In this document: piece after piece, positions 18,449 to 26,625 of the stretch
Numbering within the stretch: the stretch's first letter is position 1
Layout of the letters: each line of letters starts with the position of its first letter
From: Escherichia phage JLK-2012
Sequence record: NC_049942.1
Length of the DNA: 57,198 bases
Reading direction: 5' to 3' (one strand)
Position numbers and translations under genes: made by a program
The notes under the pieces: model-generated
What the model saw: the letters and a program-made list of their open reading frames with translations, nothing else
The model's database searches: none
What the model was told of the DNA's origin: nothing

Positions 18449-18538
18449 TTGACGCGATGATTTATTCGGGGCTATATTCCTCACGCGCCAGCAAAATCTG
18501 GCGTCGGGATTAGCACCCCGGATATCGAAACGGTGCAT

Positions 18539-18560
18539 AACCGCGCTGGCGGTTTTTTTA
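18539..18560 (+). terminator. Rho-independent terminator after ninE
   Basis: Hairpin AACCGC-GCTG-GCGGTT followed by TTTTTTT. Confidence 0.6.
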
Positions 18561-18723
18561 TGCGCTAAGCACAGTCACATTCGCGATTTATGGCGGGCTG
18601 TGTGGGGGAGCCGAAAGGCTCGCCGGATGTTTCGACCGGTAGTGCTAACCCCGCACAGTTCGCCACCACGATGATTAGCACCTGACGGTGGCGAGGTAAA
18701 AATTATCGAAACGCGAGGTCATT

Positions 18724-19263
18724 ATGGCTGTTCAAATTTCTGTCGAAAACCTTTCCCCTGTTACCTATAACCAGATCCCCGTAATTACTACTGAACTGTT
18801 GGCTCACCTTTACGGAACAAAAATCAAAAACATTTCTGATAACTTTCTGAACAACACGACGCGATTCATGCCCGGAAAGCATTACTTTAAAATTGAAAAA
18901 AACGAATTACGCGAGTTTAAGAACAGACCCGAAACAATCGGGTTAGTTGGTAAAAATGCCCGCTCCCTCATCCTCTGGACAGAACGCGGCGCAGCCCGTC
19001 ACGCAAAAATGCTCGAAACCGATCAGGCGTGGGATGTGTTCGAAAAACTGGAAGACTGCTATTTCAGCCAGTGCGAGAAAAATACTGGCAAACAAGAGAA
19101 GAAGCTCAACGGGCTTTCCGCAAAAGAAACAGACAGCCTTGTATGGCTGTGGGATTATGCCCACCGTCAGGTGGGTTTTTTATTTAGTAGTTCTCTCAAC
19201 TTTTCGTTCTGCTCTCTGAACTTTTCCTGTATTTCTTTTTGCATGGCGATAACCTGGGCTTGA
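18724..19263 (+). CDS. ORF6N-domain antirepressor-like protein, apparently chimeric/truncated at its 3' end
   Basis: N-terminal region [31 protein letters not shown]...; after the 74-bp repeat (19087-19160) the frame runs antisense through the mnt-like gene. Confidence 0.55.
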
Positions 19264-19487
19264 AGTTGAACTAGCGCATCAACATTTAGCGGAACCGAGA
19301 CGCTGTTAATTTTATCTGCTATTTCCCCGAGTGTATTTTCTGCATTCAAGGCATCTTCCAGTATCTGAACAATCTCTGAGTTCATAGAGCGCCCGTTTCG
19401 TTTGGCTCGTTCAGCTATAGCATCTCGCATTCCGTCAGGAAAACGGAGGTTGAACTTGTCGTAGTCTTTTACTTGTTTTTCGGCCAT
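19167..19487 (-). CDS. Mnt/Arc-family ribbon-helix-helix repressor (106 aa)
   Basis: [50 protein letters not shown]...; divergent from the arc-like gene. Confidence 0.6.
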
Positions 19488-19594
19488 TGCAAATCTCTCA
19501 AAAAAAATCATGGTGCCATATTGCCATACGATTTCAATAGTGGCATTATGGCCTTCATGGCGTCACTTTGGCACCAAATAAAGGAGATTAGATA

Positions 19595-19768
19595 ATGCAA
19601 GATACACTTTTCACTGAGCGCAAAAATATCAAACTCAACCTTCGCCTTCCATCACGGCTGAATGAAGACCTTCGCCGCCTGGCGGAAATGGACTGTATAT
19701 CTCTGAACTCTGCAATTGTTCGTTTGCTGGCAAAAGGTGTTAGGGAAGAGGTGGCGAATGGTCGCTAA
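19595..19768 (+). CDS. Arc-like ribbon-helix-helix repressor (57 aa)
   Basis: MQDTLFTERKNIKLNLRLPSRLNEDLRRLAEMDCISLNSAIVRLLAKGVREEVANGR; AAGGAG Shine-Dalgarno; immediately precedes the ant-like gene. Not in the supplied track. Confidence 0.6.
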   Translation: MQDTLFTERKNIKLNLRLPSRLNEDLRRLAEMDCISLNSAIVRLLAKGVREEVANGR

Positions 19769-20762
19769 AAACAGCGAAGCCTCAATGGCTGCAACCATTG
19801 AGGCTTCTAAATTACCAGTTAACCACGAGAAAACTGATATGACTAGTTTAGCAATTGCAGATCGCACAATCAATGTTCCATTCCACGGAACAAATCTCTT
19901 TTTGGTTGGAATTAACAATGAGCCTTATGTTCCTATGAAGCCTGTTGTTGAAGGTATGGGGATGGTTTGGGCTGCTCAATTTGTTAAGTTAAAACAGAGG
20001 TTTGTCAAAGGTATTTCGGAAATCGAAATACCTTCTGCTGGCGGTAAACAGTTAATGACATGTCTTGCCTTTCGTAAATTTGCGGCTTGGCTTTCAAGCA
20101 TTCAACCAAACAAAGTCCGCCCTGAAATCCGCGACAAGGTAATCCAGTATCAGGAAGAGTGTGACGATGTGCTCTACGAGTACTGGACTAAAGGCCATGT
20201 GATTAACCCGCGCAAAGCTAAAAAGGCATTGCCGGGGAAAATCACCACTGAACAGCAGGAAGCCATTAAACAACTCGTCATGAGTCGCGGTCAGTCTCTG
20301 CCAAAAGAAAAACAGACGAAGGCGATGATCACCATGTGGTCGTCACTGAAATCTCATTTTGGGTGTTCATACAAAGAAATCAGCGAGGAGCAGTTTACCG
20401 AAGCTCTGTCACTTGCTGCTCGCGTTCCGCTTGAAGGAGAGTTAATCGGCAAACAAGAGAAGAAGCTCAACGGGCTTTCCGCAAAAGAAACAGACAGCCT
20501 TGTATGGCTGTGGGATTATGCTAACCGCTCACAGGCATTATTCCGCGAATTGTATCCAGCGCTAAAGCAAATTCAATCGAACTATTCCGGCAGATGTTAC
20601 GACTACGGTCATGAGTTCTCGTATGTTATTGGAATGGCGAGAGACGTTTTAATCAATCACACACGAGATGTTGATATTAATGAGCCAGACGGACCAACGA
20701 ATCTTTCCGCATGGGTAAGGCTTAAGAACAAAGAATTACCTCCTTCACTACATCGCTACTGA
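19758..20762 (+). CDS. ant: Antirepressor (Ant-like)
   Basis: Follows the arc-like gene as in P22 immI; N-terminal domain (INVPFHGTNLFLVGINNEPYVPMKPVVEGMGMVW) resembles antirepressor N-terminal domains; start chosen at ATG with GAGGTG Shine-Dalgarno. Confidence 0.6.
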   Translation: MVAKNSEASMAATIEASKLPVNHEKTDMTSLAIADRTINVPFHGTNLFLVGINNEPYVPMKPVVEGMGMVWAAQFVKLKQRFVKGISEIEIPSAGGKQLMTCLAFRKFAAWLSSIQPNKVRPEIRDKVIQYQEECDDVLYEYWTKGHVINPRKAKKALPGKITTEQQEAIKQLVMSRGQSLPKEKQTKAMITMWSSLKSHFGCSYKEISEEQFTEALSLAARVPLEGELIGKQEKKLNGLSAKETDSLVWLWDYANRSQALFRELYPALKQIQSNYSGRCYDYGHEFSYVIGMARDVLINHTRDVDINEPDGPTNLSAWVRLKNKELPPSLHRY

Positions 20763-20780
20763 CAATTGACAACTTAACAA

Positions 20781-20806
20781 ACCCAGCTTCGGCTGGGTTT
20801 TTTATT
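20781..20806 (+). terminator. Rho-independent terminator after ant
   Basis: Hairpin CCCAGC-TTCG-GCTGGG followed by TTTTTTATT. Confidence 0.7.
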
Positions 20807-20830
20807 GGTGAATTTTCAATATGAGAGGAC

Positions 20831-21559
20831 ATGACAATGAACGAGCTGATAAATAGCAACGTCATCAAAATGACCAGCATTGAAATCTCTGAGCTTACAG
20901 GTAAGCGTCATGACAATGTGAAACGTACTATCGAAATGCTGGCTAAAAATGGTGTTATCCGACATCCTCAAATTGAGGATTGTGGAAGAATCAATGGGTT
21001 AGGCTTAAATCAAAGTTTTCGTGTGTATGTATTCGAAGGCGAACAAGGTAAGCGAGACAGCATTATTGTCGTCGCTCAGTTGTCGCCGGAATTCACCGCT
21101 CGCCTTGTTGACCGCTGGCGAGAACTCGAAGGGGCAACCGCGAAAATACCACAAACCTTTTCTGAGGCATTGCGCCTTGCGGCCGACCTTGAAGACCAGA
21201 AGGCTGAACTGGAGAAACAGCTTGCTCTCGCAGCACCTAAAGTTGAGTTTGCCGATCGCGTTGGCGAGTCCAGCGGAATTTTGATTGGAAACTTTGCAAA
21301 GGTTGTTGGTATTGGTCCAAACAAACTGTTTGCGTGGATGCGCGATCACAAAATCCTTATTGCTTCAGGCTCCCGGCGCAATGTGCCAATGCAGGAATAT
21401 ATGGATCGTGGCTATTTCACAGTGAAAGAAACAGCGGTCAACACAAATCACGGAATACAGATATCGTTCACCACAAAAATCACCGGGTGTGGTCAACAGT
21501 GGCTGACAAGAAAGCTGCTAGATAACGGAATGCTTAAAGTAACAGGGGAGGCTGCTTAA
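20831..21559 (+). CDS. Rha-family regulator / antirepressor with AntA/KilAC-type C-terminal domain
   Basis: 242 aa; N-terminus ([32 protein letters not shown]) typical of phage Rha proteins. Confidence 0.65.
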
Positions 21560-23401: not shown

Positions 23402-23476
23402 GGGTCAGTCGTATAAAGGTCATTACGGAAGGCTGTTAACCTTCTTATCGTGGTTCGAGTCCACGCTGTCCCGCCA
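23402..23476 (+). tRNA. tRNA, anticodon loop CTGTTAA (anticodon GUU, Asn by my cloverleaf parse)
   Basis: Acceptor GGGTCAG/CTGTCCC (one U-U mismatch), anticodon stem GAAGG/CCTTC, T-arm CGTGG-TTCGAGT-CCACG, 3' G-CCA. Confidence 0.6.
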
Positions 23477-23481
23477 AACAT

Positions 23482-23557
23482 GCTGGTTTAGCTCCAATGG
23501 TAGAGCAACTGACTTGTAATCATCAGGTCGCCAGTTCGATTCCGGTAGCCGGCACCA
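23482..23557 (+). tRNA. tRNA-like gene with imperfect anticodon stem (loop CTTGTAA, anticodon UGU if functional)
   Basis: Canonical D-arm GCTC-CAATGGTA-GAGC and TTCGATT T-loop, acceptor GCTGGTT/AGCCGGC with G-U pairs, 3' A-CCA; anticodon stem pairs only 3 of 5. Confidence 0.45.
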
Positions 23558-23560
23558 TAT

Positions 23561-23635
23561 GCGGGTACCGTATAATGGCTATTACCTCAGCCTTCCAGGC
23601 TGATGATGCGGGTTCGATTCCCGCTACCCGCTCCA
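23561..23635 (+). tRNA. tRNA, anticodon loop CTTCCAG (anticodon UCC, Gly by my cloverleaf parse)
   Basis: Acceptor GCGGGTA/TACCCGC, anticodon stem TCAGC/GCTGA, T-arm GCGGG-TTCGATT-CCCGC, 3' T-CCA. Confidence 0.65.
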
Positions 23636-23803: not shown

Positions 23804-24235
23804 ATGTTTGGTATTTTTGGTAAAAAAGCCCGCCGAGCGGCAGTGGAAATTAAAAAGTTTGAGAAACGTGATCTGGCACAGGCGGTTATTAATGCTGCCT
23901 ATCTGGTGGCCTATGCAGATGGTGAATGTGAGGCTTCAGAGAAAGCGAAGATCGAGCAGGTCTTGCGTAACCAGCCTGCGTTGTCCGCGTTTACGTCAGA
24001 AATTAATGCGATTAGCGCAACCATTATCGGTCAGCTGGATACGAACTTTAAAACTGGTCGTCGAGCGGCGTTACGTGAGATCGAGGATGTGAAACACGAT
24101 ACGCGTGAAGCGGAAGACGTGCTGGATGTGGCGGTGGCCATTGCCGAAGCAGACGGCGAAATAGAGCCGGAAGAGCGCAAGGTGCTGGAAGAGATTGCCG
24201 GTGTTCTGGGCCTTCGTCTGGAGAATCATCTGTGA
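23804..24235 (+). CDS. TerB-like (tellurite-resistance TerB / DjlA-N fold) protein, 143 aa
   Basis: From internal ATG with AAGGAACG Shine-Dalgarno; helical repeats AAYLVAYADGECEASEKAKIEQVL and DVAVAIAEADGEIEPEERKVLEEIAGVLGL resemble TerB-family proteins (recalled). Confidence 0.5.
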   Translation: MFGIFGKKARRAAVEIKKFEKRDLAQAVINAAYLVAYADGECEASEKAKIEQVLRNQPALSAFTSEINAISATIIGQLDTNFKTGRRAALREIEDVKHDTREAEDVLDVAVAIAEADGEIEPEERKVLEEIAGVLGLRLENHL

Positions 24236-24243
24236 CGGTAAAA

Positions 24244-24396
24244 ATGCGTCTGGCTGTGGTTGCGCTCCTGCTGTTTCTGGTGGTGATGGTGGACTTCAGC
24301 AGTCGGATAATGTCAGTGCTGGCTGACGGTGTGCTGGTGGCGGGTGTGGTGGTTGTTGCTTTCCCGTTGCTGAAAAAGAAAGCATCAGGCGATTAG
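24244..24396 (+). CDS. Small hydrophobic membrane protein (50 aa)
   Basis: MRLAVVALLLFLVVMVDFSSRIMSVLADGVLVAGVVVVAFPLLKKKASGD; two predicted TM segments; follows the TerB-like gene. Not in the supplied track. Confidence 0.4.
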   Translation: MRLAVVALLLFLVVMVDFSSRIMSVLADGVLVAGVVVVAFPLLKKKASGD

Positions 24397-24771
24397 CAGG
24401 GTATCAGTTACCCGTTGAAATTTTTAAATACCTCACAATTCAGGCGGTTGACTGTTGTCTGGTTTGCGGGGAGTTTGTTAAAAGAAACTGGCATGGTGAA
24501 TCCCCCTATGCGGAGGGGCGATCAGCAACCAGGTATATGGGATAATCGCGGATTCAGGTGCTGATACTGAATTCACCGGGAGGCACCCGGCACCATGCTT
24601 TGCCACAAAAGTGTTGTTTCTGTTTTTCTCAAACTATCATCGTTATCCCTTTATTTCCGGCTGCGCATGGCGTGGCCTTTTTTTTACGACCAGCCACTGG
24701 CAGATGGCCATCCTGTAATTTGATTCCGGTTCCGGCTTTTTAACTCTGTTCCTGTACACGGGAGAAATTCG

Positions 24772-26625
24772 ATGTCGATTAAACATTATGATGTTGTCAG
24801 GGCGGCGTCGCCGTCAGACCTTGCGGAAAAGCTGACACATAAACTGAAAGAGGGCTGGCAGCCGTTTGGTAGTCCGGTGGCCATAACCCCTTATACCCTG
24901 ATGCAGGCGATTGCAGCAGAAGGTGATGTGGTGGTCAGTGGTGCAACTGAGCCGGAGTGGTACTACGTCATCGTATTGGCCGGGCAGTCCAATGCCATGG
25001 CTTACGGTGAAGGGCTTCCGCTGCCGGATTCATACGATGCTCCGGATCCGCGCATTAAACAGCTGGCGCGCCGCAGTACAGTGACGCCGGGCGGGGCTGC
25101 CTGCAGATATAACGATATTATTCCGGCCGACCACTGCCTGCATGATGTGCAGGATATGAGTACGCTGAATCATCCGAAGGCAGACCTGAGCAAAGGGCAG
25201 TATGGCTGTGTCGGCCAGGGCTTACATATTGCCAAAAAACTGCTTCCGTATATCCCGAATAACGCGGGGATCCTGCTGGTACCATGCTGTCGTGGTGGTT
25301 CGGCATTCACCCAGGGCGCGGAGGGGACATTCAGTGCGGACGCGGGGGCCAGCCAGGATTCGGCGCGCTGGGGTGTGGGTAAACCGTTATATCAGGACCT
25401 GATTGCGCGCACTAAAGCTGCATTACAGAAGAACCCGAAAAATGTGTTGCTGGCGGTGTGCTGGATGCAGGGAGAGTTTGACATGAGCGCCGCCACCTAC
25501 GCACAGCAACCTGCGCTGTTTACAGCCATGCTGAAGCAGTTTCGTGCTGACCTCACTGTGTTTAACGCGCAGTGTCATGGTGGCAGTGCTGTAAATGTGC
25601 CGTGGATTTGTGGTGACACGACGTATTACTGGAAAAACACCTACGGCACGCAGTACAACACCATTTACGGGGCGTACAAAAACAGGGAGAGTGAGGGCGT
25701 TTATTTTGTGCCCTTCATGACAGACGGTAACGGCGTCAATACCGCCACTAACGCACCGGCAGAAGATCCGGATATTCCGGCATCAGGATATTACGGCGCG
25801 GCATCGAGAACGAATGGAAACCAGGTATCATCAAACCGCCCGACACATTTCAGTTCATGGGCGCGCAGGAGCATTATTCCGGATCGTCTGGCAACTGCTA
25901 TTCTGAACGCAGCCGGGCGCACCTCAGCCTTCATCAGTGGTAAGGCGCCTGAAATCAAACCCTCGCCCGGCGGCAACACGCCATCGGGTCCGTCTGCAGA
26001 TACGTCCGTTCGCACAATCTCCCTGCTGCCGGCAGCCGGAGAGGCTGCTGCGCAGGGCTGGAGCATTAAGGATGGCGGAATTCAGTTGTCAGATGGTGTA
26101 TTTAAGATTGCCAAGCAGAGCAATAAAACCTGGTCCCTGACGCATCCGGTGGATGACGCAATTACCCTGCTGACACAGGGCGGCAGACTGACCTGTAAGT
26201 TCCGCCTGTCAGGCGCACTGACCAACAATCAGTTCGGGCTGGGGATTTATCTGTATACGGATGCTCCCGTTCCTGATGGTGTGGCGATGACGGGTACCGG
26301 TAATCCGTTCCTGATGTCGTACTTCACTCAGACCACTGACGGCAGAGTGAATCTGATGCATCACAGGAAAGCCGGAAACACGAAGCTGGGGGAGTTCGGC
26401 GATTACGGTAACGACTGGCAGACGCTGGAGCTGGTGTTCACCGCCGGCAGTGCCACGGTTACTCCGAAACTGAATGGAGTGGCTGGCCCGGCATTCCAGG
26501 TCATAAAAGACAGTCTGACACTGGGGCTGAATGCGCTGACGCTGACGGATGTTACAAAAAATGCAGCGTATGGCGTTGAGATAGAAAGTCTGGTGCTGGA
26601 GATAAATGCACCGGCATCATCATAA
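24772..26625 (+). CDS. nanS-p: NanS-p-like sialate O-acetylesterase (prophage YjhS homologue)
   Basis: 617 aa; N-terminal SASA/DUF303 esterase-like region ([11 protein letters not shown]); same position (between Q/tRNAs and holin) as nanS-p in Stx prophages as recalled. Confidence 0.75.

Follow-up and report, generated by a model that had tools for sequence, protein, structure and literature searches.

A P22 immI-type cassette inside the nin-region antirepressor gene of a lambdoid prophage of Escherichia coli O55:H7: probable splitting of the resident gene with duplication of 74 bp

How does a control unit of the P22 immI type come to lie within the early operon of a lambdoid prophage, between two identical copies of a 74-bp sequence? 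The question is raised by a locus in the 57,198-nucleotide record of Escherichia phage JLK-2012 (NC_049942.1; this whole stretch of DNA is referred to below as the window). E. coli O55:H7 strain DEC5E (NZ_CP038383) contains the window at 100% identity, as a lambdoid prophage without stx, integrated beside mlrA. An initial annotation of the sequence had noticed the repeats and, between them, genes resembling mnt, arc and ant of phage P22, and had suggested that an upstream ORF6N gene was a recombination remnant. Our comparison with related phages and prophages indicates that a resident nin antirepressor gene (ant), encoding an ORF6N and a P22_AR_C domain, was probably split by 1,287 bp of a P22 immI-type cassette, with 74 bp of the resident gene duplicated in the process.

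The 74-mer, which begins and ends as GGCAAACAAG...GGGATTATGC, is present as two plus-strand copies with 0 mismatches at the positions first reported, and two such matches occurred in 0 of 100 dinucleotide-preserving shuffles. When gaps are allowed, about 84 bp are alike, with 96% identity. In the resident nin ant gene this sequence forms the 5' end of the segment coding for P22_AR_C, and both copies in the window are the resident-type 74-mer (R). The upstream open reading frame (ORF) enters the first copy in frame, as had been described. Its native part (18724-19160) comprises the ORF6N domain and the first 25 codons of P22_AR_C, and its last 34 codons run antisense through the mnt-like gene. 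The proposal that this ORF is a remnant was borne out by relatives with one copy of the repeat, which keep an intact single nin ant at the same position, encoding ORF6N plus P22_AR_C (225 aa in Shiga toxin (Stx) phage Lahn2, 234 aa in the prophage of E. coli O55:H7 USDA5905, and intact also in F451, with roi behind it as in Lahn2), and by the Prokaryotic Genome Annotation Pipeline (PGAP), which marks 18724-19167 as an ORF6N pseudogene "missing C-terminus".

The two joints were located by mapping mismatches against the two sequence types that meet at the locus. Agreement of the window with Lahn2 extends to 19160, and from 19152 on the window matches the cassette of phage Stx2a_WGPS8, which lies at a tail-gene site. 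Every tail-site copy of the cassette starts at this identical base. The window and the WGPS8 cassette show 2 differences in 19152-20447 and 19 in 20448-20805, the first of these 19 at 20464; the window and Lahn2 show none over 20448-21056. From this map it follows that the incoming DNA is 19161-20447 and that the switch back to resident sequence took place within the first 16 bp of the repeat (20448-20463). The antirepressor gene downstream is thus composed of a P22_AR_N half (to 20447) from the cassette and a P22_AR_C half (from 20448) from the resident nin gene.

The 74 bp were duplicated because the left joint corresponds to a point of the recipient gene further downstream than the right joint does, an order that excludes a simple double crossover on a single molecule. 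The pattern of the joints would fit template switching in two steps, or a pair of unequal exchanges with later conversion. As sole mechanism we also considered, and rejected, one homologous crossover or the integration of a cassette in circular form; either would leave at least one donor-type (R') copy, and both copies are of the resident type. The initial annotation had described the locus as a recent homologous-recombination mosaic joint. Of this the recency stands, in that identical copies fit a recent event, but no simple homologous exchange accounts for the structure, and the left joint is a 9-bp microhomology. In the R'-type ant gene, the site most similar to the cassette hairpin falls exactly at the junction. 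Its score was reached by 2,166 of 3,000 shuffles and is not significant, so that this similarity is compatible with a microhomology joint and proves nothing.

We propose that the incoming piece would have carried the left hairpin, the mnt-like gene, the divergent promoters and operators, the arc-like gene, a sar-like RNA and the P22_AR_N half of ant. It would have joined the end of the 74-bp segment through the microhomology GGATTATGC and rejoined the resident gene within the first 16 bp of that segment. Re-entry upstream of the exit point would have duplicated the 74 bp; the template may have been switched in two steps, or two unequal exchanges may have had the equivalent effect. Two products would result, an ORF6N pseudogene that runs into the cassette hairpin and an intact chimeric Ant with the N-domain of the cassette and the C-domain of the resident gene.

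Both ingredients are found together in a sister prophage. USDA5905 carries at mlrA a homologous prophage, many of whose protein accessions are identical to those of DEC5E. Its nin ant is single and intact, contains the exact 74-mer once and shows no difference from window positions 20448-21072, and the cassette between its tail genes L and K agrees with the window insert at all but 2 of 1,296 positions. Between 20448 and the L stop codon at 44971, identity of the two prophages is 99.77%; from K onward it is 90.8%. Identity in the early region is 97.4%, with 18524-18957 highly divergent and a very different ORF6N allele. The simplest reading is that a USDA5905-like ancestor held both ingredients, that the leftmost 1.3 kb of the cassette ended up inside the nin ant gene of the DEC5E lineage, and that the tail-site copy and the early region of this lineage were replaced by exchanges with other prophages. 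No intragenomic donor of the cassette was found in DEC5E, in whose genome the cassette occurs only once.

Coordinates of the features of the locus and of the empty tail site are collected below.

Features of the split antirepressor locus and of the tail site in the window
Feature	Position	Strand	Evidence and remarks
c4-a1b1, targets of C4 antisense RNA	18472-18524	+	Rfam RF03163, 50.6 bits (gathering score 46.7)
IsrK-like small RNA with terminator	18485-18559	+	Rfam RF01394, 76.6 bits (gathering score 50); terminator-like hairpins 18531-18554
C4 antisense RNA	18586-18670	+	Rfam RF01695, 75.1 bits (gathering score 45)
Truncated resident nin ant, 179-aa ORF	18724-19263	+	Pfam ORF6N 1.6e-20, plus only 28 positions (2-29 of 73) of P22_AR_C
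Repeat copy 1	19087-19160	+	Resident type, at the start of the P22_AR_C coding segment; Lahn2, F451 and USDA5905 each have one identical copy
Left joint	19152-19160	.	9-bp microhomology common to repeat end and left edge of tail-site cassette
Left cassette hairpin	19159-19185	+	GCCCACC-GTCA-GGTGGGT, then T-run (terminator scan)
mnt-like ribbon-helix-helix repressor, 106 aa	19167-19487	-	Pfam Arc 1.4e-20; PDB 1MNT (P22 Mnt) 1.4e-7, Arc 3e-5
Predicted divergent promoter/operator region	19488-19594	.	107-bp spacer; inverted repeats I3 and I4, direct repeat D1
arc-like ribbon-helix-helix repressor, 57 aa	19595-19768	+	Pfam Arc 22.1 bits (cut-off 20.4)
sar-like antisense RNA	19773-19839	-	Spans arc-ant spacer and ant ribosome-binding site; minus-strand terminator 19807-19776
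Chimeric antirepressor gene, 307 aa	19839-20762	+	Pfam P22_AR_N 9.1e-40, P22_AR_C 3.5e-27, both near full length
Repeat copy 2	20448-20521	+	Right joint inside first 16 bp (20448-20463)
ant terminator	20779-20805	+	Resident (Lahn2-type) copy in the window
Empty cassette site	44969-45009	+	L stop codon, 10 bp, K start codon; WGPS8 and USDA5905 carry a 1.65-kb cassette there

The content of the insert agrees with the earlier description of an mnt/arc/ant module resembling immI of P22. The module is flanked by NinE (with NinB and Dam further 5') and, on the 3' side, by roi (pRha plus KilAC), NinG, a phosphatase gene and Q, and so belongs to the nin region of the early operon and not to the late region by the tail genes. 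Pfam Arc matches confirmed the divergent pair of ribbon-helix-helix (RHH) proteins between the repeats, and the P22_AR_N part of ant starts at 19839. The mnt-like protein (WP_001302649.1) is identical to that of the USDA5905 tail-site cassette, and its stop codon lies inside the loop of the left hairpin. Because the match of the 57-aa protein to Arc in PDB is weak (E = 0.12), its assignment as arc-like is based on Pfam together with the position of the gene. The spacer between the two genes is rich in palindromes, as had been noted, with inverted repeats TGGTGCCATATTG/CACTTTGGCACCA and GCCATATTGCCA/TGGCATTATGGC, and contains promoter-like consensus sites on the plus strand (19521-19549) and the minus strand (19574-19545). 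The candidate sar-like RNA has the right position and strand and matches the full Rfam sar model (1-68) with 29.5 bits (gathering score 43) and E = 0.0032; its fold energy is -32.3 kcal/mol (z = -6.85). A candidate promoter for it, TTGATT-17-TAAACT at 19873-19845, was read by eye.

The gene that received the insert had a control system of its own. The C4, IsrK-like and a1b1 elements directly upstream, which were overlooked in the initial annotation, were found by Rfam also 5' of the intact nin ant of Lahn2 and F451, and C4 and IsrK matches are present in STEC346. None of these three elements was found by Rfam at the tail-context locus. Two 10-mers of the target region, GATTAGCACC and TATCGAAACG, recur at 18673 and 18704, just 5' of the ORF6N ribosome-binding site. 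The duplex energy of C4 with the ORF6N leader was matched by 17 of 300 shuffles and is uninformative. In the window the antirepressor gene behind these elements is not intact, being truncated after codon 145. On the sequence, what the insertion broke is an antirepressor gene predicted to be under antisense-RNA control of the P1 type, for which control of the P22 type was substituted. It had been suggested that recombination installed a P22-type switch in the nin region. The module is there, but its arrival split a resident ant gene with C4/IsrK elements and brought only the N-terminal half of a new one.

The module is a discrete cassette bounded by two hairpins, with its usual home between tail genes L and K, a site that is empty in this prophage. 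Stx phages Stx2a_WGPS8, 2851 and YYZ-2008 match window positions 19152-20805 at a late-region position; in the annotation of WGPS8 the unit is flanked by L, a minor tail gene, and K, which encodes a C40 peptidase. We examined the cassette ends in 80 IMG/VR loci that encode relatives of the mnt-like protein. The left end is a conserved hairpin, CCCACCGTCAGGTGGG, followed by a T-run; in most contexts an A-run precedes it, and in several contexts the flanks are unrelated. The right end in all contexts is the ant terminator ACCCAGCTTCGGCTGGGTTTTTT, followed by unrelated flanks. The cassette is moron-like in that it has fixed ends and lies between unrelated flanking genes in several of these contexts. 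Its left hairpin and the ant terminator are imperfect direct repeats of one another, alike at 20 of 24 positions, and the changes in the stem keep the pairing. In the window, the junction of L and K has a K start of the lambda type, and in relatives with the cassette the N-terminus of K is a different one (MLYSNIL...).

Known systems suggest how the rearranged locus might work. In a lysogen, CI would keep pR off, the Mnt-like protein would repress the arc-ant promoter and the sar-like RNA would block translation of ant. Upon induction, N-modified transcription from pR would pass the IsrK terminator, the ORF6N remnant and the left hairpin, and would then run antisense to mnt and in the sense direction through arc and ant, so that Ant is made. 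Inactivation of CI-type repressors by Ant would then make induction faster, by analogy with phi24B, whose nin Ant is intact. Knockout of ant in phi24B reduced a pR' reporter to 27-56% of wild type; the phi24B Ant promotes induction, and its last 104 residues are 82% identical to P22 Ant (PMC3064807). At the isrK-orf45-anrP locus of Gifsy-1, IsrK gates the translation of a downstream antirepressor-like gene (PMC4825925).

Several observations weigh against the reading given so far, some against its functional part and one against the place of origin that it assumes. The promoter and operator assignments are consensus matches only, with 5 promoter-like sites found and 3.6 expected, and the sar match falls below its gathering score. 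The prophage is probably defective: PGAP annotates a frameshifted portal gene (35122-37706), an internal stop in the tail-tip gene (46543 onward), an insertion of the IS3 family in the early-left region (8254-9467) and a truncated HNH endonuclease gene (30042-30392). In view of the portal, tail-tip and IS3-family lesions, Ant may therefore act mainly or only in trans, or not at all. Finally, the junction between R and the hairpin occurs in three other sequence backgrounds, where the repeats have diverged (90% identity in STEC346, 84.5% in the IMG/VR locus L086). The junction type therefore predates DEC5E, and the arrangement may have been imported by homologous exchange.

Such an import is the alternative that fares best, although we regard it as somewhat unlikely. 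The arrangement would have arrived ready-made, by ordinary homologous recombination, from a lambdoid phage with the nin-type junction, and its flanks would later have been converted to the resident, Lahn2-like type, giving identical copies. In its favour, the identical left junction is present in STEC346, whose phage backbone differs in replication genes, Q and RusA and whose insert is closest to a different tail-site variant (L030, 98.4%), and in L086, where mnt, arc and the N-domain of ant are entirely different. The differences between the early regions and ORF6N alleles of DEC5E and USDA5905 likewise indicate that the left flank was exchanged at some time. Against it, both copies in the window equal the resident 74-mer of the sister prophage, the switch points coincide exactly with the edges of homology, and a search of 5,426 complete E. 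coli genomes, 50,697 phage records, species-representative genomes and metagenomes yielded no donor whose repeats are identical. The nin-type junction occurs in 2 of the 5,426 genomes (DEC5E and STEC346) and in 0 of the 50,697 phage records. Exact-pattern scans for it (TGGGATTATGCCNACCNTCAGGTGG) gave two IMG/VR contigs only and 0 hits in species-representative genomes and in metagenome contigs. The tail-type junction is present in at least 267 of the 5,426 genomes.

In L086, the mnt-like gene (84 aa) and the arc-like gene (60 aa) both differ from those of the window, Ant consists of KilA-N plus P22_AR_C, and the out-of-frame tail of the truncated ORF6N gene is a different one. Judging from these sequences, the contents between the conserved cassette ends are exchangeable. 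L086 also has an additional 67-aa ORF with CxxC pairs between arc and ant (2147-2350, minus strand) without a Pfam match. Further rearranged nin ant loci were seen in L088 (E. coli O157:H7 PV15-279, 1025-2273) and in H154, H156 and H155. In one of these loci a second, complete ant stands behind an ORF6N pseudogene, with about 570 additional bp, and another has an IS1203 insertion; the nin ant locus looks like a hot spot of rearrangement.

We consider it highly unlikely that the split form is instead ancestral, the common single ORF6N-P22_AR_C genes being products of deletion between the repeats. Deletion between the repeats would yield exactly a Lahn2-type gene, and GGATTATG, found at the tail-site cassette's left edge, equals ant coding sequence and suggests that a nin-type arrangement predates the tail-site copies. 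Yet 484 complete genomes have the collapsed single ant-roi form and only 2 the split form, the single form is also that of the sister prophage, the segment that we denote A-R had to exist before it could be duplicated, and the repeats are identical here and diverged elsewhere. As to the future of the locus, the translation obtained by collapsing it between the repeats is a complete Ant, and identical direct repeats of 74 bp should allow a precise deletion that restores the ordinary single gene.

That the duplication is an artefact of assembly has a negligible chance of being right: E. coli O55/O157 genomes do hold many near-identical lambdoid prophages prone to misassembly, but the repeat is only 74 bp long, the left junction is unique sequence and joins no repeat, an independent IMG/VR isolate-genome contig of 5,456 bp (L013 = L085) reproduces the arrangement at 100% identity from C4 to roi, related arrangements occur in two further assemblies (STEC346 and L086), and the reading frames are coherent, with the chimeric ant intact.

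Retaining the splitting of a single resident gene as the probable origin of the DEC5E locus, we return to the left edge of the tail-site cassette and its 8-9 bases, GGATTATG(C). They stand directly 5' of the hairpin in only two contexts, the tail L/K site and nin, and in the nin context they are ant coding sequence. The other contexts have an A-run there. Descent of the tail-site cassette from a nin-type arrangement would account for this more easily than a chance identity. We tentatively suggest, as a possibility somewhat short of even, that these bases are a fossil of P22_AR_C coding sequence (W-D-Y-A) and that the tail-site cassette descends from a nin-type arrangement. If so, the start of P22_AR_C and the two look-alike hairpins would serve as recombination linkers that shuttle immI cassettes between nin and tail operons and swap alleles of the regulators and of the Ant N-domain. 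DEC5E would then be a relocation caught within one prophage, with a P22-type switch placed in series with a P1-type C4 RNA switch.

The locus can be set beside several known systems. With the immI region of P22 (mnt, arc, sar, ant) it shares gene order and orientation, an mnt-like gene on the strand opposite to the arc-like gene and ant, a short palindrome-rich spacer, two repressors of the Arc/Mnt RHH family, an Ant composed of P22_AR_N plus P22_AR_C, and a putative antisense hairpin RNA over the ant ribosome-binding site. It differs in lying in the early nin operon, whereas immI of P22 is in the late region, in the origin of its Ant C-domain from another gene, in the length of its Mnt-like protein (106 aa), in a sar match below the Rfam threshold and in putative operator sequences that are unrelated.

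The immI region of P1/P7, where C4 controls icd-ant, and the Gifsy-1 locus resemble the window in the C4, a1b1 and IsrK-like elements directly 5' of the ORF6N gene. In contrast to both, the regulated gene of the window is truncated, so that the putative C4 control would cover only the remnant and read-through. No icd-like gene was identified in the window.

The flanks of the insert (NinE, C4 elements, ORF6N half, P22_AR_C half, roi and NinG) are 99% identical to those of the nin ant locus of Stx phages, and the 74-mer is coding sequence of that gene. In Lahn2, 933W-type phages, phi24B and VT2-Sakai the gene is uninterrupted, encodes 225 aa and is followed by roi at the same nin position, with no mnt or arc genes. 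The Arc/Arc/Ant cassette between L and K in 2851, YYZ-2008, Stx2a_WGPS8 and USDA5905 is 99.85% identical to the window insert over hairpin, mnt, arc and the N-half of ant, with its left edge at the same base. Unlike the window, which has the left 1.3 kb and a resident C-half, it forms a complete unit in the late operon, including a P22_AR_C half and a terminator of its own.

Morons and mosaic joints of lambdoid phages are the subject of the Hendrix model. Like morons, the cassette is a self-contained, terminator-bounded unit among unrelated genes, and one of its joints in the window is at very short homology and the other at shared sequence; unlike morons, it was inserted inside a gene, half of which is re-used. 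No description of the arrangement as found in DEC5E was found in the literature searched.

Elsewhere in the window, a serine/threonine protein kinase gene (11023-12069) adjoins the immunity region, with an S24-peptidase CI-type repressor gene nearby (12994-13701). Genes for tRNAs Asn, Thr and Gly (23402-23635) follow Q, where Stx phages carry stx, and behind this trio (23804-26625) are TerB-family, DUF3927 and DUF6645 genes and no toxin genes. The portal-gene region 36648-37237 gave several offset, overlapping BLAST matches to the sister prophage, which suggests internal tandem repeats.

The feature is genuine and resolved in detail, and the initial annotation was correct in most respects. Its parts are known (a P22-type immI, a P1-type C4 system, the nin ant of Stx phages and a moron-like cassette), and so is the kind of process that joined them. 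Its value is that of a clean, datable example with a sister prophage for comparison, together with a hint on the origin of the common tail-site cassette. At single-base resolution, the locus illustrates the rebuilding of induction controls in lambdoid prophages: a unit of repressors, antisense RNA and antirepressor was moved into an early operon, where half a resident gene was re-used. In E. coli O55/O157, antirepressors can affect the induction of prophages and the cross-talk of co-resident prophages, Stx phages included, and such rearrangements could therefore alter induction behaviour.

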